Under the pieces are notes generated by a model that saw only the letters and a list, made by a program, of their open reading frames with translations, had not been told where the DNA came from and did no database searches. The position numbers and the translations under genes are program-made. A stretch of DNA of 27,291 nt from the NCBI GenBank assembly GCA_964014485.1, contig CAXHAT010000100.1:1-27291 (forward strand), given 5' to 3'. Positions 5,601 through 27,255 of this stretch are shown here, in pieces (the stretch's first letter is position 1; each line of letters starts with the position of its first letter). This DNA comes from an uncultured Deferribacteres bacterium (GTDB lineage Bacteria > Zhuqueibacterota > Zhuqueibacteria > Zhuqueibacterales > Geothermadaptataceae).

Positions 5601-5843
5601 ATGAACGCTTCCGTGACGAGACTACAACAAATTGCGCTAACGCTGCCAAGTGAACATTTACAAGAAGTAATCGATTTCGCCGAATTCCTTTCACTCAAAA
5701 CACGCGAGGAACTTGCGCGAAGTGCACAGAATTCGACACGCGCAAACACTGCAGGACTGGAAATCCCCGTAATAAAGGGCGTCAAATTCGTTGGTGATCC
5801 GCTTTTGCGACGGGAAGACCTGTACGACGACCGGGGACGTTAG
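5601..5843 (+). CDS. DUF2281-type antitoxin-like protein
   Basis: LP.E..QEVIDFAEFL motif and C-terminal RREDLYDDR; GGAG upstream; stop codon abuts the PIN gene ATG. Confidence 0.75.
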   Translation: MNASVTRLQQIALTLPSEHLQEVIDFAEFLSLKTREELARSAQNSTRANTAGLEIPVIKGVKFVGDPLLRREDLYDDRGR

Positions 5844-6278
5844 ATGGCTGAGAACAACATCTTCGTTGATACCAACGTCTGGGTCGCGCGCATACTTAAA
5901 AATCACACCTTCCACAAACGCGCGAAAGACGCCCTTGATGAGCATACGAAAAATAAGGAGTATCTTTATATCTCCAGCCAGATCATTCGTGAGATTATTT
6001 CGGTCTGTACTTTGGGCAAAGGGCTATCCAGACCGCTTACTTGGGATGAGCTATACCAGGAATTGGCGGCAGTTTTGAAACAGGTTGTACTGCTTCCCGA
6101 AAATAGTAAAACTGTTGCCCGACTGGTCGATCTTGGGAAACAATACCGGGTTCGCGGCAAGCAAATTCACGACGCTAACATTGCCGCGACAATGTTGGCG
6201 AATAGTATATCACGAATTCTCACGTTCAATCCAGATGATTTCAAGCGATTCGATGAAATTGAGGTCATTATCCCATAA
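5844..6278 (+). CDS. PIN-domain (VapC-family) ribonuclease toxin
   Basis: Conserved acidic PIN motifs IFVDTNV, QIIRE, IHDANIAA and TFNPDDF; 144 aa. Confidence 0.85.
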   Translation: MAENNIFVDTNVWVARILKNHTFHKRAKDALDEHTKNKEYLYISSQIIREIISVCTLGKGLSRPLTWDELYQELAAVLKQVVLLPENSKTVARLVDLGKQYRVRGKQIHDANIAATMLANSISRILTFNPDDFKRFDEIEVIIP

Positions 6279-6466
6279 CAAATTCCCGCCAATTTTGACT
6301 TGCCGAGCCCATAAAATCCCCTATACGGCGATTGTCCTTTCATTCTTTTCGTTTAACTTTATTATGCTCAAACTGGCTGCAAAAGCAAGATACGAGATTT
6401 CAAGGGCTGACATGATTCATGTAAAACAATTTTTTGTGTTCAATAACTAACAAACATAGGCAAAAA

Positions 6467-7903
6467 GTGACGGCTGATATAGAAAAAAAACTCTCGAAAC
6501 AATTTGCGGACTGGCTCGGAAGCGCACCCGAAAATATTGTGAAGATGCAGGCGCATGGATCGGATCGGAAATATTTCAGACTGACCGCAAAGAACGAAAC
6601 GGCCATCGGCGTTTATAACCACGACAAAAAAGAAAACATTGCTTTTCTCGATTTTTCGGAGCGTTTTGGCCGCCTCGATTTGCCGGTACCGGAAATTTAT
6701 GCGCAGGATTTGGAAAGCGGCGTTTATCTCGAAGAAGACCTCGGCGATGAGACGCTTTTCAGTTTTCTTTCGCGCGAGCGGGAAAAGGGAGGATTTTCGC
6801 CGCGTCTCATCAAGATTTACCGGAAAGTGCTGGAGCAACTCCCACGCTTCCAAATTCTCGCCGGAAAGGAAATCGATTATAGTTTGTGCTACCCGCGCGG
6901 CAGCTTTGACCAACAATCGATGATGTGGGACTTAAACTATTTCAAATACTATTTTCTCAAGCTCGCCAAAATCCCTTTCGATGAACAATCGCTGGAGGAC
7001 GATTTTCACAAATTTGTCGATTTTCTGCTGCAAGCGGAGACTGATTTTTTTCTGTATCGCGATTTTCAATCCAGGAACGTAATGCTCAAAGACGGCGAAC
7101 CGTATTTTATCGACTACCAGGGCGGGCGAAAGGGCGCGCTGCAATACGACGTCGCTTCGATGCTCTATGACGCCAAGGCCAATATTCCGCAAGCTGTGCG
7201 AAATGAACTGCTTGAGCATTACATCCAGGCGGTTGAAAAATACAAGCCGGTCGACCGCGACTCGTTTATGCAGCACTACTACGGCTATGTTTTTATTCGA
7301 ATTATGCAAGCATTGGGCGCGTACGGATTTCGCGGGTTTTACGAGCGCAAAACGCATTTTCTGCGCAGCGTGCCGTACGCGATTCAAAATCTGGAATGGC
7401 TGCTGCGAACGGCTGATTTGCCGATTGAACTGCCCGCTTTGTCGGACGCCTGGCGGCGGTTGGTTGGCTCGACTTACTTGAGGCAGTTCGGCGACCCGGA
7501 TTTGAGCCTGACCGTTCGCATTCAAAGTTTTTCGTTCAAACGCGGCATCCCGGTGGACGAAAAAGGGCACGGCGGCGGGCATGTTTTTGATTGCCGCCTG
7601 TTGCCAAATCCGGGACGTTTGCCTGAGTTCAAGGAACTGACTGGGAATGACGAAGAAACGATCCGCTTTCTTGAAGAGAAAGATGAACCCAAAAAATTTC
7701 TGGATCACGTTCGCGGCATCGTTGAAATGGCGGTCAAAGATTATCGTTCGCGGAACTTCACTGATCTTATGATTTCTTTTGGCTGCACCGGCGGCCAGCA
7801 CCGCTCCGTCTATTGCGCGAACAAGCTCAGCAAATATTTGAAATCCTTCGAAAATGTCGTCGTTGAGCTGCGGCATCGCGAAATGGAAATGTGGAAACGC
7901 TAA
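6467..7903 (+). CDS. AmgK-like amino-sugar phosphotransferase (APH fold) fused to a RapZ C-terminal domain
   Basis: N-part: GSDRKYFR, LEEDLGD, YRDFQSRNVM, FIDYQG, YDVASML. C-part: IQSFSFKRGIP, VFDCRLLPNP, ISFGCTGGQHRSVY. GTG start at 6467 is probable but uncertain. Confidence 0.85.
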   Translation: MTADIEKKLSKQFADWLGSAPENIVKMQAHGSDRKYFRLTAKNETAIGVYNHDKKENIAFLDFSERFGRLDLPVPEIYAQDLESGVYLEEDLGDETLFSFLSREREKGGFSPRLIKIYRKVLEQLPRFQILAGKEIDYSLCYPRGSFDQQSMMWDLNYFKYYFLKLAKIPFDEQSLEDDFHKFVDFLLQAETDFFLYRDFQSRNVMLKDGEPYFIDYQGGRKGALQYDVASMLYDAKANIPQAVRNELLEHYIQAVEKYKPVDRDSFMQHYYGYVFIRIMQALGAYGFRGFYERKTHFLRSVPYAIQNLEWLLRTADLPIELPALSDAWRRLVGSTYLRQFGDPDLSLTVRIQSFSFKRGIPVDEKGHGGGHVFDCRLLPNPGRLPEFKELTGNDEETIRFLEEKDEPKKFLDHVRGIVEMAVKDYRSRNFTDLMISFGCTGGQHRSVYCANKLSKYLKSFENVVVELRHREMEMWKR

Positions 7904-8625
7904 TGAAAGCGATGATTCTCGCCGCCGGTTTGGGTACGCGCCTGCGCCCGCTGACAAATGACAAGCCCAAAGCTTTGGTCGAAGTTTGCGGCAAGCCGCT
8001 TATCGAGCATGTGATTCTAAAATTGAAGCTTTCCGGGGTTAAGCATGTTGTGATCAATTTGCACCACTTTGGCGATCAAATCAAAAATTTTGTTGAGACA
8101 AAAAACAACTTTGGCCTGAAAATCGATTTTTCTGATGAAAGTGAAGCGTTGCTGAGCACTGGCGGCGGGATCAAAAAGGCGGCGAATTTCCTTAAAGGCG
8201 ACGAGCCGTTTTTTGTTTACAACACCGATGTTTTGAGCGACATTGATCTGGGCGAAATGTGTCGTGGTCATTTGACAACGAACGCTTTGGTCACTCTGGC
8301 CGTCCGTCAACGCAAGACGTCGCGATATTTTTTGTTTGACGCTGAAGGCAGGCTCATCGGATGGGAGTCGGTTAGACAGAAAAAACGCATTATCGTTGGC
8401 GAACTCTTCGCCGCTCCGGAGCGGCTGTCTTTTATGGGCGTCCACTTGATTTCTCCGAGAATTTTTGATTTATTAACTGAGGATGGCGCTTTTTCAATAG
8501 TGGACGCTTATTTGAGATTGGCTAAAGAGGGCGGCTTCATTCAGGGTTTCAGAGCTGATCGATTTAAGTGGCTGGATTTGGGGCGAATGGAAAACTTGGA
8601 ACAGGCGGAAAAACTTTTTGGATAA
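7903..8625 (+). CDS. murU: nucleotidyltransferase, MurU-like (MurNAc-alpha-1-phosphate uridylyltransferase)
   Basis: MKAMILAAGLGTRLRPLT..KPKALV, LL.TGGGIKKA and WLDLG motifs; TAATG coupling to the AmgK-like gene. The murU symbol rests on this context. Confidence 0.75.
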   Translation: MKAMILAAGLGTRLRPLTNDKPKALVEVCGKPLIEHVILKLKLSGVKHVVINLHHFGDQIKNFVETKNNFGLKIDFSDESEALLSTGGGIKKAANFLKGDEPFFVYNTDVLSDIDLGEMCRGHLTTNALVTLAVRQRKTSRYFLFDAEGRLIGWESVRQKKRIIVGELFAAPERLSFMGVHLISPRIFDLLTEDGAFSIVDAYLRLAKEGGFIQGFRADRFKWLDLGRMENLEQAEKLFG

Positions 8626-13576: not shown

Positions 13577-14071
13577 CTATGGTTGACGGACGAACAGAGC
13601 CTGAGCGTCGCTTTGTCGTCGTGTTCGCAAAATACTGATCCAAATTCCCGCCATAAAAGCCAGAAACTTGACAAAGCCAAACTCAATGATGTTGTTTTTG
13701 AACGCTTCGTAAAGCTCATTCCATACCGCTGCGTCTGCTGTGATGACGACAACGCCCATCTGCACCAGAAAAAAGAGAGAAATCATCACCATGCTCAAAA
13801 ACGCGATGATCACAGGGCGGAATTGGATGATCAACTTCATCAGCGCATAGCCAAAAAGCAGCGGCAACAGCAAATCGTTCGCGCCTTGCCACACCGCCTC
13901 ACCGATATTGGGCGGCGGCGAATAACCGGGAGGACTTAAAGCAATGCTTGTCGTATCATGCGCACTTTTCCCGACATCGGAACGCGCGACGGCATGGACT
14001 GTTTGCATTGTAGAACTTTTCGGATTTGCGTTGAGAACGCTTGCGGCGGCGGCGGATAATAAAGCTAACAT
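13577..14071 (-). CDS. membrane protein, FUN14-like C-terminal half
   Basis: Strong SD (AAAGGAGG) 5 nt before the ATG. Three hydrophobic segments: FGYALMKL..., ...LVQMGVVVI...W, ...AFMAGIWISI, resembling FUN14 by eye. Confidence 0.6.
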   Translation of the reverse strand: MLALLSAAAASVLNANPKSSTMQTVHAVARSDVGKSAHDTTSIALSPPGYSPPPNIGEAVWQGANDLLLPLLFGYALMKLIIQFRPVIIAFLSMVMISLFFLVQMGVVVITADAAVWNELYEAFKNNIIEFGFVKFLAFMAGIWISILRTRRQSDAQALFVRQP

Positions 14072-14314
14072 TTGAGCCTCCTTTCTACGGGTGTTTTTTT
14101 CAGGAGCACTCCATATCCGTTTCAGAAACGTCGATGAAAATTAGCGACGCAACCTTCTCCCATTCAGACAACAGCTCCCCAATAGTTGATGTTATTATGG
14201 TAAGAAATCAGATATTCGCTTTTGTTATCTGTAAATTTTTACAAGGAGGGCGGGATGATGACAAAGGCGTTTTTATTACACCATTTGAAGCAGATGTTTT
14301 TTGTAAGATTAGAT

Positions 14315-16672
14315 TTAAACCCATTCAATAATGATGGTCGCTACCTTGGTGCCAGCGGGGTGGTTTTTCAAAGAATTGAGTTCAGACGTTTCGTTTTGAC
14401 GATACCAATTCAAGTCAACCGAAATGTCTTCGATCACATTTTCGGGCAGAGTTTTAAAAGCCTTCAATAAGGGCAGGCAGTCGGCGAGTTTCGCCAAGTT
14501 TTTGGAATAAACGGCGTTTTTTTGGCGGTCAAAAGGCGGGATTTGTTCGACAGCGTCGCGCAGCGTCACAAACAACCTTGGAAAGTTCGTGGCTTCATCC
14601 TCGGGGAATTTTGTTTTAAGCCAAGCGAGTTCTTCAGGAAAAAGCCCATGCTTGTGAATGATACAAGCAGAAGCGTCGGGCTCATTTTGCGCAAAGCTTA
14701 TTGAAAATCCGAGAATTGTCGTAAAATATTGTCTGGGAGTTTTTACTGAAAAACCGATTGATTTTTGAACCCCTTTTTCAAAAAAGACAACGTTCTCTTG
14801 ATACTGTCTGTACAGGCAAACTAAACGATGCCGGAGCACGGCTTCCAAATGTCTGCGCTTAAAATCCATGGTTCCAACGTTAAAAAGCTGTTTTGGGAGC
14901 ATTCCTTTTTTGTTGGATTGCCCAGCTTGAAAGAATCGTTCTACATCGGCAATAGCCTCGTTCCACAACGCCGCGCCGTCTTTCGAGTCGACAATTTTGT
15001 AGTAAAAATTTGAAAGCCCCTTTCTCCAAACGCCTTGTTGTGGGCCGCCGAGAAGTTTGCGGCGTTTTTGAATCTGTTCTTGCAAGCGTTCGGCGAAAGC
15101 GGCATAACCGATATCCGGCGGCAATCCGAGAATAGGATCTTTGGAAACATAGTTGATTTTTCGGGTAGACAGTGTATTTTGAATGCTGGAAAGCGCTCGC
15201 TTGGAGAATGCGGTTAGCATGTAGATCACCAAATGCGGGTAATTCTGAACTTCTTCGATCAAGTCATAGCCTTGCCTCGGCTGCCAGAACCTGTTTTCGT
15301 CGAGCAATTCCATATCCGCGAGCAAAGCGGAAACGCTGCGCGGATTTTTCTGGAACATTTTCAAAGCTTCTTCCCCATTAGTGAACCCATGGACATCGGA
15401 AAAATATCCTTGAAGACCACTCATGAGCGCAGCCAGGGTCTCAGGATCGTCTTCAACGATAATAATTTTATCCGGAACGTGTTTTCCGCCCGCAACAGGC
15501 TCGCTTTGTACTAGTTCAGCGTAGTATTCTTCGAGTAAATGCTCTAGAGATTTCAATCTTCTGAACAATTCAGGATTATTCTTCTCAACAGTGGCGCGAG
15601 CGCCTTTTGTTTTAGTCAAGATTTCATCAGTCAAAATTCTTGCGTTCGCCAGCATAAAATCTAGCGTATAAATAATGCGCTCATTGTTGGAATTGCGGCC
15701 TAATTTTTTGAGATCGTGCAGCAATTTGTCAACGATGCCGTCGTCGCGCAGGTAATAGTTTTGGATGATCGTTGATTTTGCTGCGGAGACTTCCGGGATA
15801 CATAAAGCTTCGTCGGCAACAAGGTCGTTGGGGATTTGAAAATGCGGGAAGATTGGCGTAAGCAGACGAGACGCATCCGTTTTTGCATACAATTCTTTAC
15901 GCGGCAAAAAAGATATGAAAGCGATTTGTAAGCTGTCATAAAGCGCCGCCAACATTCTTGCCGCTTCATAACCTTTGAAGCGCGTATACAGACCTTCCTC
16001 ATCTTTAAGCTCAGCTTGGATCAAGATTGTTGAACCCGCTTTGACTTGGCCATCGAGCGCTTCCGGGGTTACGGCCACGAGCTTGTCTTTATAGGTTTTG
16101 CGAAATTGTTCGGCTAACGGGCCTTCGTTGCAAACTACAATTGCATTTTCCGGCAGTTTTAGCTTTTTAGGTAATCTGACTGTTCTGTGAAAATCACCGA
16201 ATTGCCGCTCTAACTGGTGATCGATTTGCAAACAAGCTTTCAGCGCATTGAGCGCATCATGAAATTCGGCGGGATGGGGAGAAGATTGTGATTGAAAAGC
16301 GGCAAATAACGTGAGAAGACGAGGATAAATTGGGTCGATTCTTGTGCGATGAAAAGGGTGAAAAACGGCCTTTGATTTGTTTTCACGAATATCTTCAATC
16401 AGCGGTGATCGCATCGCGTCATCGTGAACAACGACGTTCAGCAGTCCTTTTGTCATCAGTAATCGTTTGATTTGTAGATCATATTCGCCAACCAGTCTTT
16501 CGCTGATGACCAAAACATTTTCAGGTTCAACATTGGGGCATTGGTAACATATGCCATCTATAGAGAGTTTAATAATATTTTTTCCTGGCGAGGTGCCGAA
16601 ATCTTCCAGCATTGGACAATTTTGACGAATCGTTCTCGCCGGGATAATAATTGCGGTCGGGAAGCCACTCAT
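14315..16672 (-). CDS. large cytoplasmic receiver-domain protein (degenerate REC, helical His segment, canonical REC, unknown C-terminal domain)
   Basis: ATG at 16672 overlaps the upstream stop (ATGA); 785 aa. Canonical REC: KIIIVEDD...LLADMEL...GYDLI...YMLTA...YVSKD. An earlier REC-like unit (ILIQAEL..GYEAA..IAFIS) lacks the Asp. Confidence 0.75.
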   Translation of the reverse strand: MSGFPTAIIIPARTIRQNCPMLEDFGTSPGKNIIKLSIDGICYQCPNVEPENVLVISERLVGEYDLQIKRLLMTKGLLNVVVHDDAMRSPLIEDIRENKSKAVFHPFHRTRIDPIYPRLLTLFAAFQSQSSPHPAEFHDALNALKACLQIDHQLERQFGDFHRTVRLPKKLKLPENAIVVCNEGPLAEQFRKTYKDKLVAVTPEALDGQVKAGSTILIQAELKDEEGLYTRFKGYEAARMLAALYDSLQIAFISFLPRKELYAKTDASRLLTPIFPHFQIPNDLVADEALCIPEVSAAKSTIIQNYYLRDDGIVDKLLHDLKKLGRNSNNERIIYTLDFMLANARILTDEILTKTKGARATVEKNNPELFRRLKSLEHLLEEYYAELVQSEPVAGGKHVPDKIIIVEDDPETLAALMSGLQGYFSDVHGFTNGEEALKMFQKNPRSVSALLADMELLDENRFWQPRQGYDLIEEVQNYPHLVIYMLTAFSKRALSSIQNTLSTRKINYVSKDPILGLPPDIGYAAFAERLQEQIQKRRKLLGGPQQGVWRKGLSNFYYKIVDSKDGAALWNEAIADVERFFQAGQSNKKGMLPKQLFNVGTMDFKRRHLEAVLRHRLVCLYRQYQENVVFFEKGVQKSIGFSVKTPRQYFTTILGFSISFAQNEPDASACIIHKHGLFPEELAWLKTKFPEDEATNFPRLFVTLRDAVEQIPPFDRQKNAVYSKNLAKLADCLPLLKAFKTLPENVIEDISVDLNWYRQNETSELNSLKNHPAGTKVATIIIEWV

Positions 16673-19600
16673 ACTGCTGATCTCCTGGCGGCGAATAAAG
16701 CTCTGCAAAGATGATACTTACTGCGTTCTTCTAACAAGTATCTGGCAACTTGTGAGTATTGAATAAATCTGGCTTGTAGCTTGCGAATCGTTTCCGGCAA
16801 ACCGCGTCCAGAAATGAGCACAATATGCAATTGAGGAAAATCACCTTCGATTCTTTCCAGCCATTTCGACATTCCTTTGTATCGATCTCCGAATAGTTTT
16901 TCGAGTATGCCTAGGTGGAGAACAAAAAAAGCGGCGTTTGGCAAATGTTCGCTCACCCAGCGCTCCATTGCAGCCTCAAAATACGGCGGGTTGTCTAAAT
17001 CGACTTTCTCTTTGGGAGGTATGAAAATATTCATCCGCTCCAGCATGCCTTCTTCAAAACCGTTTGTGCCATGCAGCTGCTCAACCGCTTTTTGGATGCG
17101 TTCGTCGAACAGCGTGATTTTGACCAAGCCGGTTTCGATCAATTCGTTAACGATTTTCTGATTAGCGCACGGTGTTTCAGGAACGTTGCTCAGAAGAAAA
17201 TGCGTGGGTTGTTTATGTTGAATCGGCTCGTAATACAAAGACTGACCGCACGCAATTTGATGTTCTAAGAATTCGGAGTAATCCTTGTCAATTAAACCAT
17301 GACGATCATAGATAACATATTTTTTTTCGGGGTTCAGTTGAAGGATACGGTCCGGGGTAATAGATGCTTCAGAGAGGCCATCGACGTTCCAATGAGAGGC
17401 TGTCGACTCATCTTCCGGGCGAATAAAAAGCTTTACACGCGGTTCTTTTGCCTGAACCCATTTTTGCCAGACGGTTTCGCAAAAACCTTCCGCGCTGTCA
17501 CCGGAATCTTTGTACAACGATTTCAATGCTTCGGAATTGATAACCGGGAACGCATTATCTATTTTTCCAGAAGTCAAGATGCGCATAGGCAGCGCTTTCA
17601 AATTTTCTTTCACATCTTGCAAAAGCGCTATGGAAGGCTGGTCGAGAATAAGAAATTTATGTTCAATATTAGAAGCAAGCTTTTCTTCAAACTCTTCTTT
17701 GCCAACGATGTCGATTCCGTTGCCACGAATTTTGCAAGCAAATGCGTCATCTTGTTGGAAAGACTTGCTTTCATCAACAATCAGGACTTCCTTCGGGCGG
17801 TTGAGAAAAAAACGATAACCAAGATTGCTATCGATATTGACAGCTTCAAGCAATGGCGGGTTGTGTCTTCCGTCCAGTTTTTCCGGCGGTATGTTGCGTA
17901 GATAGGCTGCACAAATTTTCATCTCCAAAACGCCCCAGGCCAAACCTCGCAACGCACCATTTTCATCAAGAATCGATTCGCCAATTCTGCCGTTAATATA
18001 ATCCAACAATTTCATACCCGCACCGCTTCCCGCAAAGCTACGCGCATTGCCAAGCCGATCTGAAATGCACACTTCGATGAGATCGTCGTTTTCCAACACG
18101 TCTCGCGTTTCAAAGACAATTTCCAGTCTATCATGACAACTCCGATCGAAAGCATGCTTGGCACTATTTCGGATAATGTTTTCTAGAACGATATAAAGAG
18201 CATGCATGCCAAGGATACCGTTAGGACAAGCAAATCGTGGATCTGATTCCGGGCTTTCAAGATCGATAAAGCGGTCGTTATTGAGATAGGAAATAATAAT
18301 TTTTTTTGCTTTCAAATCGTCGATTCCGCTGATGCGGTCAAGCAAAATCTCTTGCCACTGCAAATCGTCTTGATCCTGATAACGCGGCTTGAAGTAGCCC
18401 ATAACGTCGCGGTAAATATGAGCGGAAGCGCCTACGCCGGGACGCGAGGTGGAAAGCGCGGCTATAAAATCCATCCTGGTGCGGACGTACGAATTCAGCG
18501 CCATTATGCGCTGGTCGGTTCTACGAAACGTTTTTTCATCACCAAAGAAATCACGTTTGCTATACATTCTCGCCAACACGTGTGATCCAATATTATGAGA
18601 TAAATTTCGCGCCATCACTTTCGCAATAGCGGATTGACGGTGAGCGTCTTTAGATTTTTGGTGGGCGTTTTTTAGACGCGATGAATTTAAGAGAAGCATC
18701 CTTGCTTTCAACAGTTCGTCAAGAAGCAATACAGCATCTTTCATGCGTTTATGTATGTAGGGAATTTTCAAGCTCAATTTTTCAGGGGCAAGAATTTCAT
18801 GCGGGACTTCCAATGAAAGTATTTTATTCTTGCAAACGTCTTTCAATTCCTGATCAACATACTTTTCGATTTGCTTCCGTTCAAGGACTCGGGCAATAGA
18901 GATCTTGCACATATCGCCTTCTATCCAAAAAACCTGGCTGTTTTCCAATGTTTCCCGTGTTTCCAACCTACTCTTTCGCCAATGGTGCAGGCTGCGAATT
19001 TCACTTTCCCAATATTCGATGGGATTTTGAATGTCACTGTTTTCTCCATAGCTGTCCAGGATACTGTTGCGAGTCCCGCGCAGATAAGCTTCATTAATGA
19101 CTTTGTATAGACCATTATTCGGCGGATCAAAATATTTGTGCGCCTGGTCTCTCACCTCTTCATCAGAAAAAAATACGCCCAGATATCCCCTCACAGCACG
19201 TACCGGCGGGCAATCGCCGTCGTAAATCGGCAAGTACAGCAAGTAAGGGTACTTGTATCTGTCCTGATAAAAATTGATCCCCTGTATGGTATACATCCAA
19301 TCTTGATAGAACGCTTCGAACGGCTTGTATGATATTTTATGGAATTGTTCAGTCACTTGTGGTTGCGGGGGGCTGTCTTCGATTTGCAGGAATGGGATTT
19401 CTGCAGCGTCATGTTGTTGCGTGAGACATATTTTCGCTCGATAGGCGTGCCCTTGCTTCTCTTGGTGATAGTTATGGATAAGGCCGATGTTGAAAGCTTT
19501 CGGAACAACAAATTTATATGTTAAATGGAAAACGCCGGTCAGAAACTCAATGTCGTCATAATCACCGGGGTTTTCCAAGACCTCCTTGTAATACTTTTCC

Positions 19601-19905
19601 AAGGAGGTTTTTTTGACACAATTACTAAAAACCAGCGCTGCGTTTTCTTGAAAAATGTGCTTATGATTAAGAATATGTTTGAATTTTTCTTCATCATAAC
19701 CCAGTATCCAACGAAAGCTAACAGTGCCGTCAGGTCTTGTTTTCAACAAAGTAAAATCGAAGGGCGCCGCTTCTTCTGCGGTAAATCCTGAGTTGCTGAG
19801 AAAATTTTTGTATTGACAGTCTAATCCGTCAGCAACTGTCGTATATGGACGACGCTGTAAGGTAAAGTCTTGTAACATGTTTTCAATATTGTTAATGGTG
19901 CACAT
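16669..19905 (-). CDS. soluble atypical histidine kinase (GHKL) with C-terminal pseudo-receiver domain(s)
   Basis: SD GGAGGAG before ATG 19905; 1078 aa. H-box-like ARNLSHNIGSHVL, N-box VLENIIRNSAKH, ISDRLG and GALRGLAWG. C-terminal REC-like fold ITLFDER...FVLHLG...IVLISGRG. No transmembrane helix seen. Confidence 0.7.
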   Translation of the reverse strand: MCTINNIENMLQDFTLQRRPYTTVADGLDCQYKNFLSNSGFTAEEAAPFDFTLLKTRPDGTVSFRWILGYDEEKFKHILNHKHIFQENAALVFSNCVKKTSLEKYYKEVLENPGDYDDIEFLTGVFHLTYKFVVPKAFNIGLIHNYHQEKQGHAYRAKICLTQQHDAAEIPFLQIEDSPPQPQVTEQFHKISYKPFEAFYQDWMYTIQGINFYQDRYKYPYLLYLPIYDGDCPPVRAVRGYLGVFFSDEEVRDQAHKYFDPPNNGLYKVINEAYLRGTRNSILDSYGENSDIQNPIEYWESEIRSLHHWRKSRLETRETLENSQVFWIEGDMCKISIARVLERKQIEKYVDQELKDVCKNKILSLEVPHEILAPEKLSLKIPYIHKRMKDAVLLLDELLKARMLLLNSSRLKNAHQKSKDAHRQSAIAKVMARNLSHNIGSHVLARMYSKRDFFGDEKTFRRTDQRIMALNSYVRTRMDFIAALSTSRPGVGASAHIYRDVMGYFKPRYQDQDDLQWQEILLDRISGIDDLKAKKIIISYLNNDRFIDLESPESDPRFACPNGILGMHALYIVLENIIRNSAKHAFDRSCHDRLEIVFETRDVLENDDLIEVCISDRLGNARSFAGSGAGMKLLDYINGRIGESILDENGALRGLAWGVLEMKICAAYLRNIPPEKLDGRHNPPLLEAVNIDSNLGYRFFLNRPKEVLIVDESKSFQQDDAFACKIRGNGIDIVGKEEFEEKLASNIEHKFLILDQPSIALLQDVKENLKALPMRILTSGKIDNAFPVINSEALKSLYKDSGDSAEGFCETVWQKWVQAKEPRVKLFIRPEDESTASHWNVDGLSEASITPDRILQLNPEKKYVIYDRHGLIDKDYSEFLEHQIACGQSLYYEPIQHKQPTHFLLSNVPETPCANQKIVNELIETGLVKITLFDERIQKAVEQLHGTNGFEEGMLERMNIFIPPKEKVDLDNPPYFEAAMERWVSEHLPNAAFFVLHLGILEKLFGDRYKGMSKWLERIEGDFPQLHIVLISGRGLPETIRKLQARFIQYSQVARYLLEERSKYHLCRALFAARRSAV

Positions 19906-20104
19906 ATTTTCTCCTCCCTGGAATCCATTCCTTTCCACTTGTGTAAAACATTCAATGCAAAGAATTATAGAGCGGCAGTGGGTATCGATGTCCAATGACT
20001 GTTTGGAGACCCGGGAGATAGAAACTCTGAACCTTTTTCAATATCAGGTGAAATATCGCAAGAGAACCGCTACAAAATAAAACTTACTCACTGCGAAAAA
20101 CGTT

Positions 20105-20254
20105 CAACCTTGCCTCCCCCCAGCAGCTTCAGCAACGCACAGTTCCTGCTGCCACGCCTCCTGGACTTATTCCTCCTTGCTTCGAGATCAGAGAGAGAAG
20201 AACAATCCCTTGCTGTAAAAACTGTCCGTTCCTGAAGCTTTTAAGGCAAGGTTG
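20105..20254 (-). ncRNA. candidate rod-like structured RNA or 5' leader (about 150 nt), family unknown
   Basis: Nested helices 20105-20115/20244-20254 (11 bp), 20125-20132/20232-20239 (8 bp), 20134-20144/20220-20230 and 20163-20176/20196-20208. G.U pairs favour the minus strand; TATAAT lies just upstream. Confidence 0.45.
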
Positions 20255-20265
20255 TGTTGGGAAAA

Positions 20266-20271
20266 ATTATA
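20266..20271 (-). promoter_or_regulatory. perfect -10 hexamer upstream of the structured element and kinase gene
   Basis: TATAAT on the minus strand at 20271-20266; no convincing -35. Confidence 0.35.
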
Positions 20272-20346
20272 CTGAAAGCGATGTTAGCTGGAGTTATCTC
20301 ATTTTGGGCGAGCCAGAAAATGCGAGGGAAAAGGCGGGAAACTTCT

Positions 20347-20404
20347 ACGGCGACTCTTCTCATTAACACCGAAATAATTCACGGTGTTAATGAAAAGTCA
20401 CCAT
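20347..20404 (-). terminator. long hairpin (about 23 bp) 3' of the radical SAM gene
   Basis: Minus strand ATGGTGACTTTTCATTAACACCG / CGGTGTTAATGAGAAGAGTCGCCGT, with a 12-bp perfect core, G.U pairs and a 2-nt bulge. Begins 23 nt after the stop; no immediate U-tract. Confidence 0.55.
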
Positions 20405-20427
20405 CTTTACATCATTTTGTCGCTTAA

Positions 20428-21528
20428 CTAAAACAAGCCGGCCGGCTCCAAAACAGCATTGACGGAATTATGAATTTTTGACAAGCCAAGTTCATACAAC
20501 TTTCGTGCGTTAAAACCACAATCCGCAAGCTTTGCAACGGCGACTTGATCATAATTTTTGACTTGCATCAAATCTTCCGCCGATAGCCAATAACCTTCCG
20601 GCGTGACGCGAACGCTGCGCCAGAGACCAACCGGAATTCGGACCGAATTAACGCGCAGAGTCAAACCATTTTCAAACGTCTTCGGTACAGAAGCGATGTC
20701 CTTCATGGGGTCGGCCAATCCCTTCATCGTCAAAATCGAAAGCAACTCGTTCTGGAGCGGATCGACTTCCATATTGACACGAACTTCTGAATTCAATTTA
20801 ATCTGTTCAAAACGTTCGAAAACCCGATCAACGATTTCGTAAAAATCGCTGGTATTCAAATTCAGCGATTGATCCGTCCATGATTTAGGTTTGTAAAAAC
20901 CTACTGAAAAGTTGCCTACTTTGTAATGGTCGTGGAGGAACTGTACAAAGTCCGGGAGTGAATACAAGTTCGTCGCGGCTACAGTGTGCGTTATCCAAAC
21001 ACGGTCGCAAAACTTTTCTGTCAACCATTGCAAGTTCGGCGCAAGCTGCTCGAAGGCGCCTTCGCCTCGAATGTAATCATGTTCTTCAGGCAAGCCGTCA
21101 ACACTGACGTCGATATAATCCGGCGTGGTCTCTTCAAGCTGATTTTTATACTTGTGCAGCAACGTACCGTTCGTAATCACGCCGATTTCCGTTTGCTTGC
21201 CGCTTTGCTGAACTTCGTTTCTCAATTTCACCGCGTCCAACAAAAGCGAAACGCTTTGATCGTTGATGAACGCCTCTTTTCCGGCAATGCACAAAATAGA
21301 AGGCTTGACGTCTTCAAAAACAGATCGAAAAAATTTCAGCCATTCGTCACGGGTCAAGTACTTGTCGAAAGGCGACGTTTGTAGGTAACAATGCTTGCAA
21401 GAAAGATTGCAGGCATTATTGATTAGAGCAGAAATGACTTCCAGATTTCCGGCTCCACCCTCCGCTCCAGGTTCGGTGTTGAGTCGCGGGAAAGCGCCAT
21501 TTAAACTCCCCGCCATCAAATTTGACAT
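20428..21528 (-). CDS. radical SAM enzyme, function unknown
   Basis: CNLSCKHC (CxxxCxxC), AGKE in place of GGE, ITNGTLL and VSVDG...HDYIRG.G.F; SD AGGAGG at 21539-21534. Confidence 0.9.
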   Translation of the reverse strand: MSNLMAGSLNGAFPRLNTEPGAEGGAGNLEVISALINNACNLSCKHCYLQTSPFDKYLTRDEWLKFFRSVFEDVKPSILCIAGKEAFINDQSVSLLLDAVKLRNEVQQSGKQTEIGVITNGTLLHKYKNQLEETTPDYIDVSVDGLPEEHDYIRGEGAFEQLAPNLQWLTEKFCDRVWITHTVAATNLYSLPDFVQFLHDHYKVGNFSVGFYKPKSWTDQSLNLNTSDFYEIVDRVFERFEQIKLNSEVRVNMEVDPLQNELLSILTMKGLADPMKDIASVPKTFENGLTLRVNSVRIPVGLWRSVRVTPEGYWLSAEDLMQVKNYDQVAVAKLADCGFNARKLYELGLSKIHNSVNAVLEPAGLF

Positions 21529-21664
21529 GGCGACCTCCTGCCCCAGCAGAAAAAATTCAGAGGGGCGTCATAGATGCGGCATTCATGCTGAGTTGCGAGT
21601 ATCAATTCCCTGATGCTCGATGGTCTTTTCAGTCAATCCGCGTCCCAAAAAATCCGCTCAAACG

Positions 21665-21689
21665 AAAAAACGCCACAACATCGTGGCGC
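21665..21689 (-). terminator. intrinsic terminator in the leader of the radical SAM gene
   Basis: Minus strand CGCCACG-ATGT-TGTGGCG followed by TTTTTT, about 140 nt upstream of the radical SAM ATG. Confidence 0.65.
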
Positions 21690-21840
21690 AAACTTCACTC
21701 CAAGCGTCTTGTGACATTTAGGAAGCGGAAAATTTGAAAGCGTCTAAGTGTCCATTTCATAGTCGCATCTCTCATCAGTTGCGTGAAAAATAGAAAGTCG
21801 AAAAAGTTGTAGGAAAACGATGAACGCTTAGAAGGAAGAC
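21665..21840 (-). ncRNA. candidate leader/attenuator or small RNA (about 175 nt) containing a 21-codon ORF
   Basis: Extended -10 upstream; 15/16-bp long-range helix 21823-21838/21693-21708 with three G.U pairs on the minus strand only; ends in an intrinsic terminator. Confidence 0.4.
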
Positions 21841-21845
21841 AATAA

Positions 21846-21854
21846 ATCATAGCA
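21846..21854 (-). promoter_or_regulatory. putative extended -10 promoter
   Basis: TG-C-TATGAT on the minus strand (21854-21846). Confidence 0.4.
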
Positions 21855-22089: not shown

Positions 22090-25000
22090 ATGAAGCACAG
22101 GATTTTGGCCGGAATAGCAGTCGTTTTACTGGCATCCTTCACCGCCCCAGCCTTCGGGCAAAGCCAACCGCAAGGGCGCAGATCAACCCCGCCCAAGGAT
22201 ATTAAAAAACAGATCGAAAACACGCTTGCTCGCCTTGATCACTCGCGCATCAGCACCGGTTTTCTACGCAACCGCGCTGTACCGCTCGTTGATCTAAACA
22301 AACTCTCGGATGCTGAAAACGGCGCTCCCATCACGCTGAAAACGTGGCGGCAAATCTATTTTGAAATGCACAACAGCGCCTTGCAAACGCCAAATTTTGC
22401 GGCATTGCAGGATTTTGAGCGCCGCGCAGAGCGATTCAAGCGCAGCGGCGTTATTCCGGTTGGTATGCTGCGATTTCACTATAACGAAATCAAGCCGGAC
22501 GCTGTAGATCGCGGTCTGTTGCTCGTCGAGAATGACCAGTTGATCGATGTTCCCGAAAGTCCTGAATCTCCTTACCGCGAAAACGCCGTTTTTGCCGCTT
22601 CAGCTTTGAGCGCACATACATACGCCGATCCGCAGGCGTTTATTTTCCCCCAGGCGCTTTACACTACCAATCAAAGCTCGCGCCCGCAACGACTCGAAGT
22701 CAATTTTGACGACGGACGCGGATTTCAACGCATCGCTTTCGATCAGCCGATTTCGATAAGTTATACATCGCCCGGCCAAAAAAACATTGTCGTCCGCGCT
22801 GCATTTGGCGAGGAAGTTCTCGAGAGCGCTTTTCTTTTTGAAAAACGCGAGTTTCAATCGATTGAAGCGACCGATACGCCGGACGTCTTCTGGGAAAACC
22901 TGGTTTCAGACTATGATTATCTCGGCGTTTTCGGCGAGTACGACGCTTATATTTTTCTCGGCGACGGCAACACCGAACTCACAGACCCGCTCATATTCGT
23001 CGAAGGCTTTGATCCCGACAACGCTTTTGGCTGGCCGGAAATCTGGGATATTTTAAACGGTTTCGAGCTCGCACCGCGTTTAATCGCCGACGGTTATGAC
23101 ATCGTCATCATGAACTTTCACAACGGCGCCGACTACGTTCAACGCAATGGGCTGGCGCTTGTGAGCCTGATTGAAAAAGTGAACGCTGAAAAAACCGGCA
23201 ATGACCAGATCGCGATTGCAGGCGCCAGCATGGGCGGCTTGGTAGGGCGCTATGCGATGACCTACATGGAAACCAACGGCAAAGATCATAATTCGCGACT
23301 GTTCCTGACCTTTGACTCGCCGCATCAAGGCGCGAACATCCCTCTTGGCGTACAGCACTGGGTCGAGTTTTTTGCCGATCACTCTGCAGCAGCGGCGGAT
23401 CAACTGGTCAATTTGAACTCGCCTGCGTCGCAGCAAATGCTGGTTTATCATTTTGCCAGCGAACCGAATTACACAGAAAATTCTCTCAAGTCAGACCTGT
23501 TGAATGATTTGGCAAGCATGGGCAACTACCCAAGCGCCTCTGGTTTGCGAAACGTTGCGGTCGCAAACGGAAGCGGAGCCGGGTCGGCGGGCGGGCAGCT
23601 TGGCAATAACGACGTGCCGCTCAATCCTGGCGACCAGATCATCGAATGGAATTATTGGAGCCTGTTCGTTGCTATCGACGGCAATGCCTGGGCTGTTCCG
23701 GACGAATCGCCGGAAACGCGAATTTTCGAAGGCGACGTTGATCAACTTTGGCCGTTTCCAGACGATCATCTCGAGGTTTTCGTTTCTGGTACGCAGCCGT
23801 ACGATAATGCTCCCGGCGGTAAGCGTGATACGCAGCAGCAAATTTCAGATTCCGACACTGGCGGGCTTGGCGTGATCATGACGGACTTCCCGTATCACAA
23901 TTTTATCCCGACGGTAAGTGCACTGGATATTCGCGACGGCGGCGGCGATCCAGTCGATCTCTTTTACAACATAAATAATGATGCACAAGTCGTTGATAAA
24001 ACGCCGTTCGAAGCGGTAAATTTTCCGACTTCTACGATAAACGAAGAACATGTTGAAGTGACTCAAGCGAACGCAGATTTTGTCGTCGCGCAAGTGCAAA
24101 TTGGCGGCTCCGCTCCTACTCCGCCTGCTGATCCGTCAGGCTTGACGGCAACGGCCAGCGGAACATCGCAAATCGATTTGGCCTGGACGGACAATTCCGG
24201 CAACGAAGACAATTTCAAGATCGAGCGTCACGCAGGAGACGGTAATTTCGCCGAAATCGCCACGGTCGGCGCGGACGTGACGTCGTTTGGCGACACAGGC
24301 CTTTCGGCTTCGACGACCTACACTTACCGCGTGCGCGCTGCGAACGCCGCCGGGAATTCCGGTTATTCCAACGCAGCGTCGGCCACGACGGACGACCCGC
24401 CCTCGCCGCCGGCTGATCCGTCAGGTTTGACCGCCACGGCCAACGGAACGTCGCAGATCGATCTGGCGTGGACGGACAATTCCGCCAACGAAGACAATTT
24501 CAAGATCGAACGCCATGCCGGCGACGGTAATTTCGCTGAGATCGCCACGGTCGGCGCGGACGTCACGTCGTTTGGCGACACAGGCCTTTCGGCTTCCACG
24601 ACCTACACTTATCGCGTGCGCGCTTCCAACGCCGCCGGGAATTCAGGTTATTCCAACGAAGCGTCAGCGACGACGGACGATCCGCCCCCGCCGCCTGCTG
24701 ATCCGTCAGGCTTGACCGCCACGGCCAACGGAACATCGCAGATCGATCTGGCCTGGACGGACAATGCTTCCAACGAAGACAATTTCAAGATCGAGCGTCA
24801 CGCCGGAGACGGTAATTTTGCCGAGATCGCCACAGTCGGCGCGGACGTGACGTCGTTTGGCGACACAGGCCTTGCGGCTTCGACGACGTACACTTATCGC
24901 GTGCGCGCTTCCAACGCCGCCGGAAATTCCGGTTATTCCAACGAAGCGTCCGCCACCACCGACGATCCGCCCCCGCCGCCTGCTGATCCGTCCGGTTTGA

Positions 25001-27255
25001 CCGCGACGGCCAACGGTTCTTCGCAGATCGATCTGGCGTGGACGGACAATGCTTCGGATGAAGACAACTTTGTCATCGAGCGGCATGCCGGCGACGGCAA
25101 TTTCGCCGAGATCGCCACGGTCGGCGCGGGCGTGACTTCTTTTGACGATACCGGACTTGCCGCTTCGACGACCTACACTTATCGCGTGCGCGCTGCGAAC
25201 GCTGCCGGAAATTCGGGCTATTCAAACGAAGCGTCCGCCACCACCGATGATCCCGGCGTCGATCCCAACGAAAATCTGGCGCTCGACAAGCCGGTCACCG
25301 CTTCCAGCGAGCTCTCTTCCCGGCCGGTTGAAAACGCCGTCGACGGCGACGACGGCTCGGTTTTCGGCACCGACAGCGACGGCGAGCAGTGGCTGCGCGT
25401 CGATCTCGAAGCCGCACTGCCTGTCGGACGCGTCATTGTCAAATGGACCAACGATTATTTTGCAACCGATTATGAATTCCAAATTTCCGACGACGACGCC
25501 AACTGGACGACGGTTTATTCAACAGATGCAGGCGCGGCGGGCGAGCAGGAATTCACCTTCTCGCAGACAACCGCGAGCTACGTTCGTCTGTTCATGACGG
25601 CGGCCAATCGCAGCCGTTACGGGATCGGCGAGTTGGAAGTCTATGCCGGCGATGCTCCGGCCGGGCCGCCTGCCGCGCCTTCCAGTTTGACGGCGACGGC
25701 CAACGGCGCGTCGCAGATCAATCTGTCGTGGACGGATAATTCTTCCAACGAAGACAATTTCAAGATCGAGCGGCATGGAGGGGACGGCAATTTTGTTGAA
25801 ATCGCGACCGTCGGCGCGGACGTCGTTTCATACAACGACACGGGTTTGGTCGCTTCGACGACTTATACTTATCGCGTGCGTGCGTCGAACAGCGCCGGAA
25901 ACTCCGGCTATTCCAACGAAGCTTCGGCCACCACCGACGATCCGCCTCCGCCGCCCGCTGATCCGTCCGGCTTGACCGCAACGGCCAACGGTTCTTCGCA
26001 GATCGATTTGTCTTGGACGGACAACTCCGGCAACGAAGACAATTTCAAAATCGAGCGTCACCCGGGCGACGGCAATTTCGCCGAAATCGCCACCGTCGGC
26101 GCGGACGTGGTTTCCTACAACGACACGGGCTTAAGCGCATCGACAACCTATACCTATCGCGTGCGGGCTGCCAACGCCGCCGGGAATTCGGCTTACTCCA
26201 ACGAAGCGTCGGCCACCACCGACGATCCGCCTCCGCCGCCCGCTGATCCGTCAGGTTTGACGGCGACGGCCAACGGTTCGTCGCAGATCGATTTGTCGTG
26301 GACGGATAATTCTTCCAACGAAGACAATTTCAAGATCGAGCGCCATGCCGGCGACGGCAATTTCGCCGAGATCGCCACTGTCGGCACGGACGTAACCAGC
26401 TATGACGACACGGGCTTAAGCGCGAATACAACCTACACCTATCGCGTGCGCGCCAGCAATGGTGCGGGCGATTCCGGCTACTCCAACGAAGCCTCGGCGA
26501 CGACGGATGAAGGCGGCGCGGATCCCAACGTCAACCTGGCGCTCGACAAGCCGATCGCCGCTTCGAACGTCTTTTCGTCCTTTGCGGCGGAAAACGCCAA
26601 CGACGGCGACGACGGCACAAGTTGGGGCACCAAGGACGAGGGCAATGAAGAATGGCTGCGGGTCGATCTCGAATCCGGCCAGACCGTTGGCCGCGCGATT
26701 GTCAAGTGGAACGGTTCCCGTTTCGCGCCGGACTACGAACTGCAGGTTTCCGACGACGACGTCAACTGGACCACGGTCTACGCCACTGACGCCGGCGCCG
26801 AAGGCGAGCAGGAATTTGAGTTCGCCCAAACAACGGCGCGCTATGTCAGGCTCTACGTTCTGTCCTTCAATGTCTCCGCCGTGGCGGTCAACGAGTTGGA
26901 GATTTATTCGGGACCGGCGGAATCAGTAAGCAGTAAGCTGTCAACCGTCAACAGTCCGTCTTCAGCTCACGGCTCGCAGCCGACGGTTGACAGCTACGCG
27001 CTGCACCAAAATTATCCCAACCCGTTTAATCCGTCGACGACCATCGTCTTTGAACTGCCGGAAAACGAGATTGTCACGTTGCGCATCTTCGACGCCAGCG
27101 GCAGGGAAGTCGCGCGACTGGCCGAAAAACAGGCCTTCGCAGCAGGAAGACACGCACTCAAATTTGACGCAAGAAATCTCCCAAGCGGAATCTACCTCTA
27201 CGCCGTCACAGCCGGGAAATTCAGGCAGGTCAGGCGAATGGTGTTGATGAAGTAA
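22090..27255 (+). CDS. secreted alpha/beta-hydrolase (lipase/PGAP1-like) with 7 FN3 domains, 2 F5/8-type-C (CBM32-like) domains and a C-terminal secretion/sorting domain
   Basis: Signal peptide; FVEGFD, GASMGG nucleophile elbow and FDSPHQGANIP. FN3 units end in TTYTYRVRA.N..G.S.YSN. CBM32-like units NLALDKP..AS...WLRVDL...RYVRL. C-terminus YALHQNYPNPFNPST...SGIYLY...RMVLMK. Confidence 0.9.
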   Translation: MKHRILAGIAVVLLASFTAPAFGQSQPQGRRSTPPKDIKKQIENTLARLDHSRISTGFLRNRAVPLVDLNKLSDAENGAPITLKTWRQIYFEMHNSALQTPNFAALQDFERRAERFKRSGVIPVGMLRFHYNEIKPDAVDRGLLLVENDQLIDVPESPESPYRENAVFAASALSAHTYADPQAFIFPQALYTTNQSSRPQRLEVNFDDGRGFQRIAFDQPISISYTSPGQKNIVVRAAFGEEVLESAFLFEKREFQSIEATDTPDVFWENLVSDYDYLGVFGEYDAYIFLGDGNTELTDPLIFVEGFDPDNAFGWPEIWDILNGFELAPRLIADGYDIVIMNFHNGADYVQRNGLALVSLIEKVNAEKTGNDQIAIAGASMGGLVGRYAMTYMETNGKDHNSRLFLTFDSPHQGANIPLGVQHWVEFFADHSAAAADQLVNLNSPASQQMLVYHFASEPNYTENSLKSDLLNDLASMGNYPSASGLRNVAVANGSGAGSAGGQLGNNDVPLNPGDQIIEWNYWSLFVAIDGNAWAVPDESPETRIFEGDVDQLWPFPDDHLEVFVSGTQPYDNAPGGKRDTQQQISDSDTGGLGVIMTDFPYHNFIPTVSALDIRDGGGDPVDLFYNINNDAQVVDKTPFEAVNFPTSTINEEHVEVTQANADFVVAQVQIGGSAPTPPADPSGLTATASGTSQIDLAWTDNSGNEDNFKIERHAGDGNFAEIATVGADVTSFGDTGLSASTTYTYRVRAANAAGNSGYSNAASATTDDPPSPPADPSGLTATANGTSQIDLAWTDNSANEDNFKIERHAGDGNFAEIATVGADVTSFGDTGLSASTTYTYRVRASNAAGNSGYSNEASATTDDPPPPPADPSGLTATANGTSQIDLAWTDNASNEDNFKIERHAGDGNFAEIATVGADVTSFGDTGLAASTTYTYRVRASNAAGNSGYSNEASATTDDPPPPPADPSGLTATANGSSQIDLAWTDNASDEDNFVIERHAGDGNFAEIATVGAGVTSFDDTGLAASTTYTYRVRAANAAGNSGYSNEASATTDDPGVDPNENLALDKPVTASSELSSRPVENAVDGDDGSVFGTDSDGEQWLRVDLEAALPVGRVIVKWTNDYFATDYEFQISDDDANWTTVYSTDAGAAGEQEFTFSQTTASYVRLFMTAANRSRYGIGELEVYAGDAPAGPPAAPSSLTATANGASQINLSWTDNSSNEDNFKIERHGGDGNFVEIATVGADVVSYNDTGLVASTTYTYRVRASNSAGNSGYSNEASATTDDPPPPPADPSGLTATANGSSQIDLSWTDNSGNEDNFKIERHPGDGNFAEIATVGADVVSYNDTGLSASTTYTYRVRAANAAGNSAYSNEASATTDDPPPPPADPSGLTATANGSSQIDLSWTDNSSNEDNFKIERHAGDGNFAEIATVGTDVTSYDDTGLSANTTYTYRVRASNGAGDSGYSNEASATTDEGGADPNVNLALDKPIAASNVFSSFAAENANDGDDGTSWGTKDEGNEEWLRVDLESGQTVGRAIVKWNGSRFAPDYELQVSDDDVNWTTVYATDAGAEGEQEFEFAQTTARYVRLYVLSFNVSAVAVNELEIYSGPAESVSSKLSTVNSPSSAHGSQPTVDSYALHQNYPNPFNPSTTIVFELPENEIVTLRIFDASGREVARLAEKQAFAAGRHALKFDARNLPSGIYLYAVTAGKFRQVRRMVLMK
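24127..26510 (+). repeat. intragenic 285-bp tandem repeats (FN3 x4 and x3) within a 1260-bp higher-order duplication
   Basis: Equivalent unit positions at 24127, 24412, 24697, 24982 and 25672, 25957, 26242. GATCCCAACG at the start of each CBM32-like domain at 25261 and 26521 (offset 1260). Confidence 0.9.
26924..26995. repeat. palindromic heptamer-repeat element inside coding sequence
   Basis: CAGTAAG CAGTAAG CTGTCAA CCGTCAA ... GCTCACG GCTCGCA GCCGACG GTTGACA, with a 14-bp perfect inverted repeat at 26936-26949/26982-26995. Confidence 0.7.

Follow-up and report, generated by a model that had tools for sequence, protein, structure and literature searches.

A radical SAM enzyme, a soluble histidine kinase and a multi-receiver regulator make up one copy of an unnamed signalling module that is widespread in bacteria

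What unites a radical SAM enzyme, an atypical soluble histidine kinase and a multi-receiver protein encoded side by side on the minus strand of an uncultured Deferribacteres genome, and does their grouping reflect signalling or defence? The genes lie in a stretch of 27,291 nucleotides (contig CAXHAT010000100.1, assembly GCA_964014485.1), referred to here as the window, and an initial annotation made from its letters regarded them as a horizontally acquired cytoplasmic signalling or conflict module. The open reading frames (ORFs) described there, of 366 residues (radical SAM enzyme, 20428-21528), 1078 residues (kinase, 16669-19905) and 785 residues (regulator, 14315-16672), are confirmed, as is the ATGA overlap (16669-16672) joining the kinase and regulator genes. 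The three genes are one copy of a widespread, unnamed, cross-phylum bacterial signalling module. It probably operates as an autoregulated small-molecule phosphorelay, in which the kinase would sense a ligand and phosphorylate D453 of the regulator, and the regulator would bind a repeat at the kinase promoter.

The kinase, whose start is taken as the ATG after a GGAGGAG ribosome-binding site, has no membrane helix. Its model (pLDDT 92.6, 84 sequences) comprises a GAF-like domain (residues 12-285), a small α/β domain (285-380), a DHp hairpin with H437, a CA domain (490-705) and three receiver-like units (705-1078). The GAF-like domain aligns with five GAF-containing entries at Z 7.4-8.0, values below 8 being modest. 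The helices of the hairpin span residues 382-441 and 457-486, with H437 ahead of the CA domain, which has the GHKL fold (PrrB, 1ys3: Z 9.8, rmsd 2.9, 134 residues aligned); such a fold and a helical hairpin with a conserved histidine are the DHp and CA features of histidine kinases. Among 120 homologues, the CA motif residues N580 (N-box) and G658 (G2) are invariant and D616 (G1) is kept in 115. The two-histidine H-box noticed earlier is confirmed (H437 in 118/120 and H442 in 117/120).

The units that follow the CA domain appear receiver-like, judging from secondary structure and weak profile scores (37%, 0.2%, and 10%); profiles used for the local comparisons of kinase and GAF were single sequences and uninformative. 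In the last unit D934 (120/120), E935 (119/120) and S/T1032 (120/120) are conserved, and H997 occupies the phospho-site in all 120 homologues. The His-for-Asp replacement recognized by the initial annotation therefore stands, because H997 ends the strand where receivers carry an aspartate. Canonical hybrid kinases have a C-terminal receiver with an acceptor aspartate, and the kinase with its His997 does not belong among them. Another histidine, H869, is also kept in 120/120 homologues.

Standard libraries hardly see this protein: it has no meaningful Pfam match and no NCBIfam or PADLOC match, and the named Pfam kinase classes (HisKA, HisKA_2, HWE, and HEF_HK) gave nothing at E values up to 1 for Pfam and 0.1 for NCBIfam. 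Atlas feature matches to HWE/HisKA_2 kinases score 0.87, which is a lead only, and the best Foldseek match is ShkA (E 1.5e-5). Relatives of the kinase nevertheless numbered 254 among 8000 candidates scored, and species-representative genomes contain 142 loci of the family, drawn from many bacterial phyla as well as from two archaeal bins. Loci are denoted below by L-numbers and genomes of the phylum by G-numbers, the labels used in the counts; locus counts rest on the 80 listed of the 142 kinase loci.

The regulator (model pLDDT 89.8, 145 sequences) is built of two receiver-like units that are inactive, a bundle of four helices carrying H319, an intact receiver (399-541) and an output domain (545-690). 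The combination of active and inactive receivers reported earlier is borne out: the intact receiver carries D408, D453 and K511 (133, 137 and 133 of the 145 sequences, respectively) and superimposes on 3jte (Z 14.8, rmsd 2.2, 124 residues aligned), and the two other units are devoid of the active-site set. The bundle, formed by helices within residues 310-385, keeps H319 in 134/145 sequences, and whole-model fold searches listed no match there. Residues 1-165 correspond, in fused form, to a gene of 170-330 codons found next after the kinase in 59 of 71 loci; with an iterated profile of this segment, 43 of these 59 small genes are recovered, ten of them in the first round. In L006-L009 the regulator is split into three genes. 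In L012 (12988-17528), L030 and L046, a tyrosyl-tRNA synthetase gene and a tyrosine-decarboxylase-like gene stand between the small receiver-like gene and the regulator. The reading of the genes as a cytoplasmic phosphorelay is supported.

What would the relay act upon? The output domain is common to 445 clusters, with R616 present in all 145 sequences, and its modelled elements (helix 606-626, strand 629-630, helices 631-639 and 646-653, strands 658-660 and 669-672) follow one another as helix, strand, helix, helix, strand and strand, which is the element order of winged helices. The output is thus probably a DNA-binding domain of winged-helix order. The remark that no DNA-binding output is recognizable is true of library searches (Pfam, PDB-sequence, and Atlas searches with the domain returned nothing significant) and probably not of the protein; the proposed relay is supported, and its effector is probably this domain acting on the repeat, not an output of some toxic kind. 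Two known domains were considered and are not supported. Domain IV of DnaA, suggested by eye and by a likeness of the repeat to the DnaA box, gave a profile probability of 1.5% and a score of 16.0, against shuffles reaching 15.8, while for OmpR/PhoB regulators Trans_reg_C matched none of 28 output domains, with a profile probability of 0.13% (10-sequence profile).

The predicted target of the regulator lies ahead of the kinase gene. A direct repeat on the minus strand (20282-20299), AGATAACT nn AGCTAACA, consists of two 8-bp half-sites with a 10-bp period and ends 10 nt before a TATAAT element (-10; 20266-20271), so that it covers the -35 position; the 5' end of the transcript is predicted near 20259. 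The repeat was first spotted by eye in six spacers, all of which have a -10-like hexamer 9-10 nt after it; an unseeded Gibbs motif search of these spacers then scored 21.25 bits compared with 15.6-16.5 bits in 20 shuffled sets, and on leaving one out the repeat ranked first in 6/6. Taken together with its -10 element, it is the top site among 16.8 million positions of the 8.4-Mb genome (24.8 versus 18.6 for the next). No genome-wide regulon was found at this gap between first and next site, and at least four sites without a -10 element exceed the score of the repeat considered alone. Of the -10-like elements claimed earlier, that of the kinase is upheld only together with the repeat, and that of the radical SAM gene is unsupported; sigma-70-like sites occur at chance level (13 vs 12.0 ± 3.8).

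The repeat recurs beyond the spacers in which it was detected. In 76 non-training loci it was matched 24 times in the sense and once in the antisense orientation at period 10, periods 8, 9 and 11-13 gave 1-4 matches, and a control set of 80 generic radical SAM loci from a metagenome scan gave 4 and 2, respectively. Among 49 well-flanked loci, it accompanies 8 of the 24 with the regulator cluster and 1 of the 25 without it. A motif-free count of perfect 8-bp intergenic repeats of period 10 found them in 18/37 loci with the regulator (41.5 kb scanned) and 2/39 without it (27.5 kb), other periods giving 0-6 and 1-3; these two regulator-less exceptions are apparently L059 and L073, in which the contig runs out 0 and 3.5 kb past the kinase. 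None of the 10 well-flanked loci with only a sigma-54 activator as output has the repeat, a contrast that is weak, as crudely defined leaders of 12 loci with such an activator showed sigma-54 promoter patterns in just 2.

In a quick tree of 41 regulators, the word of the repeat tracks regulator clades across host phyla. The word GGAAAAC, for instance, occurs in five loci from TM6, Bacteroidota and a gammaproteobacterium, which fall in the same clade as the AGATAAC group of the window; TACTAAC is found in L019, L041, L052 and L054, ATCTAAC in L012 and L013, ATCTCAC in L023 and L072, and GGATAA in L024, L035 and L049. A shared host regulator seems unlikely, as the hosts are so diverse; the tree alone cannot name the binder, as operons move as units. 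The presence and absence of the repeat point to the regulator as the binder, and in the window the kinase and the regulator would be the only candidates. One Calditrichia genome encodes two family kinases (L003 and L005), both with the repeat and only one with a regulator within 10 kb, which suggests control of the second kinase in trans. Repeats were also seen on the sense strand inside or at the end of importer or other upstream genes (L032:2633, L044:5026 and 5639, L025:3245, L030:4105, and L072:3320), and most of them have a -10-like hexamer, which suggests internal promoters within coding DNA. L042 has five TTGATA-type period-10 repeats (5759, 6182, 17323, 17413, and 17503), of which three, spaced 90 nt apart, precede a single downstream gene.

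From these components the following course of events can be proposed. The radical SAM enzyme might, on a tentative view, make or convert the ligand of the GAF-like domain. The kinase would very probably autophosphorylate at H437 at the expense of ATP, and the phosphate would pass to D453 of the regulator either directly or, in an equally credible multistep route, by way of a receiver-like unit of the kinase and the H319 bundle. The C-terminal domain of the regulator is likely to bind the repeat of 10-bp period and, once bound, would quite plausibly activate the kinase-regulator operon in the manner of a pho-box promoter; activation is proposed on the grounds that the repeat overlies the -35 position and its spacing to the -10 element is fixed. 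In most relatives an ABC importer encoded in the operon would bring in the ligand or its precursor; the copy in the window would depend on a molecule that is internal or diffusible.

Several observations weigh against this scheme. The winged-helix assignment rests on the order of secondary-structure elements in a model, and no library search confirmed the fold: whole-model searches, whose lists were filled by the receiver, contained no match of the output domain and gave no evidence of a new fold, and its profiles scored no better than shuffles against DnaA domain IV, GerE, OmpR and LytTR. The candidate acceptor D867 in the middle receiver-like unit is kept in only 61 of 120 kinases. Perfect repeats are absent from 19 of the 37 regulator loci, among them L006-L009, where the radical SAM gene is of the same family as in the window; the radical SAM gene of the window itself showed no repeat in front of it and is separated from the kinase by a hairpin. 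The match between words and clades does not single out the regulator, as whole operons travel together and the tree was a quick one. Five of the eight co-occurrences of enzyme and kinase come from a single genus, G052 (96% complete) has the enzyme without the kinase, and G141 and G137 carry the kinase with other enzymes.

The radical SAM enzyme belongs to an unnamed family. Its Pfam Radical_SAM match has an E value of 5.6e-13, its best NCBIfam match reaches 62 bits (cut-off, 400), and about 75 close proteins were found among 87 matches, with the N-terminal motif conserved. In an alignment of 71 sequences, G83, E85, D140, S142, R154, G312 and D319 are invariant. The SPASM-like segment without cysteines, noted at the outset, is corroborated by the same alignment: the CxxxCxxC motif is present, and no cysteine is conserved after C47. 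By eye, the C-terminal segment resembles a SPASM/Twitch hairpin lacking cysteines. The core profile matches SkfB, 5wgg and cytosylglucuronate decarboxylase (E 4e-15 to 2e-6); unlike SPASM/Twitch enzymes, the family lacks conserved auxiliary-cluster cysteines, falls far below NCBIfam cut-offs and has no evident precursor peptide. A metagenome scan with the family alignment retrieved generic radical SAM loci only. A parallel cassette occurs in L188-L193 (G148-G153; e.g., L189:3858-10613), in which a distant relative of the enzyme (about 25% identity) and a methyltransferase accompany a 732-residue protein with kinase-like motifs by eye and no match to the kinase family of the window, as well as a 775-residue protein that starts with a receiver-like segment (truncated in G153).

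As the nearest solved relatives by profile, SkfB and 5wgg, are peptide maturases, the enzyme could be imagined to set the signal by modifying a protein, whether this is the kinase or a peptide that leaves the cell and is then taken up again; the peptide-type binding protein of the loci that combine enzyme and importer would fit such a role. This explanation is nonetheless highly improbable. No conserved small ORF was seen near the enzyme, the enzyme gene of L006-L009 is squeezed in among transporter genes, the gaps being no longer than about 30 nt, and the conserved K84, R103 and R307 would suit a small anionic substrate.

The enzyme and the kinase were initially linked by adjacency and orientation. 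Among 167 genomes of the phylum, 10 hold the close radical SAM family (E below 1e-50; six further genomes hold a distant relative), 10 hold the kinase and 8 hold both, on one contig in seven of these eight. The link is thus upheld with exceptions, because 8 of the 10 enzyme genomes have the kinase compared with 10 of 167 overall, while G139, G052, G141 and G137 deviate. In G139 (67% complete) the enzyme lies at a contig end, the regulator and a membrane gene are on another contig, and the kinase has no match. The radical SAM family occurs upstream of the kinase in 8/80 loci, directly so in L002, L004 and L005 and with a peptide-type importer in between in L006-L009 and, with a more distantly related enzyme, L038. 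The sensor region of the kinase aligns between importer-less and importer-bearing loci that carry the enzyme.

In the wider family the enzyme slot is variable. Across 63 loci with at least 5 kb upstream (enzyme labels were tallied by hand, partly from cluster membership), a radical SAM enzyme of one of several unrelated subfamilies is encoded upstream of or fused to the kinase in 20, a methyltransferase in 16, and either in 34; the domains seen fused to the kinase are of the radical SAM, methyltransferase and PF03641 types. The slot is also occupied by PLP enzymes or pterin enzymes, by tRNA-synthetase paralogs, and by a FabH-like enzyme accompanied by an MFS transporter. Same-strand ABC importer genes lie upstream in 46 of the 63 loci and belong to four nutrient-like classes (branched-chain amino acid, polar amino acid, NMT1, and peptide). 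The window copy is a compact version without an importer; L003-L005 have no importer either. Downstream of the kinase are found a regulator of the window type, other multi-receiver proteins or a sigma-54 activator. Some operons possess extra outputs, namely receiver-HerA fusions (L041:13775-16474; L054 and L055) and receiver-TCAD9 fusions (L070:13587-16661; L075), and in L021 (15650-19078) and L028 (15571-19140) proteins of 1,100-1,200 residues that contain an adenosine-deaminase-like region are encoded downstream of the sigma-54 activator (PADLOC CARF_ADA, E 3e-94 and 2e-49).

The importers raise an alternative, namely that the module senses an outside or host-made compound and that the radical SAM enzyme works in detoxification or catabolism, as a regulated or co-opted component, rather than as a signal synthase. 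Apart from the nutrient-type importers themselves, the position of the repeat ahead of the entire importer-enzyme-kinase operon in relatives and the solitary enzyme of G052 agree with it. On the whole it is unlikely, as the slot is mostly filled by SAM-dependent tailoring enzymes, single or paired, and not by catabolic pathways, the enzymes are sometimes fused to the N-terminus of the kinase, and the importer is missing from the window copy and L003-L005.

The other option, a system for anti-phage defence or another kind of conflict, with an effector that is toxic or causes dormancy at the end of the relay, might be prompted by the patchy spread, fast divergence and low G+C content of the module, by downstream genes of some relatives (receiver-HerA, receiver-TCAD9, Ser/Thr kinase, or adenosine-deaminase-like with 1,100 residues), and by one copy that, by eye, adjoins recombinase-like genes. 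It receives little support and appears improbable. No defence model covers the kinase, the regulator or the membrane gene, and a PADLOC run on the window returned only weak viperin matches via the radical SAM core. Identity of the enzyme with prokaryotic viperin is rejected, given that the pVip match of 36 bits is confined to residues 32-157, the generic core, and the NCBIfam viperin score is 32 bits against a cut-off of 180. Among 98 downstream representatives, 88 have no PADLOC match, and several of the remaining 10 owe their match to generic domains (kinase, AAA or radical SAM). No effector gene is evident in the window, and the family is tied to importers and to the promoter repeat.

The module probably includes a fourth gene. 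It encodes a small hydrophobic, probably membrane protein of 164 residues (13577-14071, minus strand). In L005 and G139 its homolog directly follows the regulator, in L003 it comes after the kinase, and in G145 and G146 it lies head to head with importer operons. The repeat precedes the homologous gene in L005 and G139, and the window retains one half-site at about 14219-14231. A likeness to FUN14 was considered and rejected; Pfam gave no match.

Are the self-pairing segments of the region conserved RNAs, as had been suggested? The hairpins, all on the minus strand, do exist, their z-scores referring to stretches picked after a fold had been seen: a long stem-loop just past the radical SAM stop codon (20349-20402, z -9.1), a locus-specific 150-nt hairpin in the predicted kinase mRNA leader (20105-20254, z -3.8), which has no counterpart in related spacers, and a hairpin upstream of the radical SAM gene (21630-21760, z -2.9), as which 4/200 shuffles fold equally well and whose terminator-like core (21670-21689) was found by a terminator scan. 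As conserved structured RNAs they are rejected: Rfam gave no match, no DNA similarity was seen in the genome or the loci then fetched, alignment fails for spacers and for upstream regions, and the complete stretch preceding the radical SAM gene shows no better folding than shuffles (z -0.27). In 5/5 spacers that follow the enzyme, a hairpin, unrelated in sequence, is found no more than about 110 nt from the radical SAM stop codon (best 70-nt z -3.7 to -11.0), and the spacer of L003, which lacks the enzyme, has no such stem-loop (z -1.3); the stem-loop at 20349-20402 is likely a terminator or a 3' stabilizer. A 51-codon ORF (21695-21850, minus strand) overlapping the upstream hairpin could be a leader peptide, a notion so far unsupported, and has no DNA similarity elsewhere.

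The block is indeed richer in AT: its G+C content is 0.444, compared with 0.502 for the genome, and equally low values occur in 0.5% of 2342 windows of the same size. Third-position G+C amounts to 0.45-0.46 in the kinase and regulator genes, 0.52 in the radical SAM gene and 0.51-0.65 in seven flanking genes. The amidase and dinB genes that flank the block are adjacent in 6/6 family relatives examined, and the module was not found near this pair in the six (about 10 kb downstream of the pair fetched). No integrase is evident among the ORFs of the window, read by eye. Lateral acquisition is plausible, and the genome and locus surveys support a patchy distribution. Elsewhere in the window, all on the plus strand, are two small gene pairs that by eye resemble antitoxin and PIN-domain toxin modules (949-1724 and 5601-6278), a phosphotransferase fused to a RapZ C-terminal domain and followed by a gene that by eye is nucleotidyltransferase-like (6434-8625), and a secreted protein of 1721 residues with an alpha/beta-hydrolase-like region, seven fibronectin III domains, two F5/8 domains and a C-terminal sorting domain (22090-27255).

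A kinase that Pfam and NCBIfam do not see and a regulator that shows them only its receiver are thus represented by 142 kinase loci and 445 output-domain clusters. The invariant histidine at the receiver phospho-site would, if used, amount to a new phosphorelay chemistry. The repeat offers a direct way in, combining a site of 18 bp with a candidate domain for binding and with natural variants in specificity, and a reporter could lead from there to the ligand and to the product of the radical SAM enzyme. A broader and rather doubtful extension would see in the family mix-and-match private chemical signalling circuits over many phyla, composed of a swappable SAM enzyme, a GAF kinase with a histidine receiver, a new winged-helix regulator and a co-diverging operator. 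If it were true, signal, sensor and operator specificity would form a readable code, and the radical SAM enzyme without auxiliary cysteines would be a new kind of signal synthase.

No description of the module was found in the literature searched, which left subscription journals and supplements outside. It belongs to no named class, the kinase classes, OmpR/PhoB, SPASM/Twitch, viperin and HEF_HK all being excluded. The ternary conflict systems are not this module either: the part of their description that was accessible names no histidine kinases among the vWA-associated effectors (PMC7159879). The HEF_HK/Response_reg_2 pair is likewise reported to be a divergent kinase-like and receiver-like couple missed by standard domain models; it goes with restriction-modification genes, whereas the present family goes with importers and small-molecule enzymes and has no PF19191 or PF19192 match at E up to 1 (bioRxiv 10.1101/2020.08.26.268516). 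ShkA-TacA from Caulobacter, the kinase of which is the top Foldseek match, also combines a kinase bearing a pseudo-receiver with a transcription factor on which it acts (PMC7010744; PMC6969517). Unlike ShkA, the kinase of the window has an N-terminal GAF-like sensor, three degenerate receiver-like units with a histidine phospho-site and an RNxSHNxGSH H-box; its regulator has a fused histidine bundle and a new output domain, and enzyme and importer genes are linked to the family.

The pho box of PhoB/OmpR regulators is a tandem direct repeat of about one helical turn, placed over the -35 position about 10 nt before the -10 element and ahead of the regulator's own operon. The module shares such a tandem repeat over -35 before its own operon; it differs in the output domain, which has no Trans_reg_C match, in the length of the regulator (785 residues with extra units) and in a kinase that is not membrane-bound. 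Circuits for quorum sensing that combine a synthase, an importer and autoactivation include the Lux/Cqs relays of Vibrio, Lsr and agr. Unlike these, the module shows no sequence homology to their synthases or receptors, fills its enzyme slot with unrelated families and is known from genes alone; what it has in common with them is an enzyme, a transporter, a sensor and a regulator gathered in one cassette, together with a predicted feedback site.

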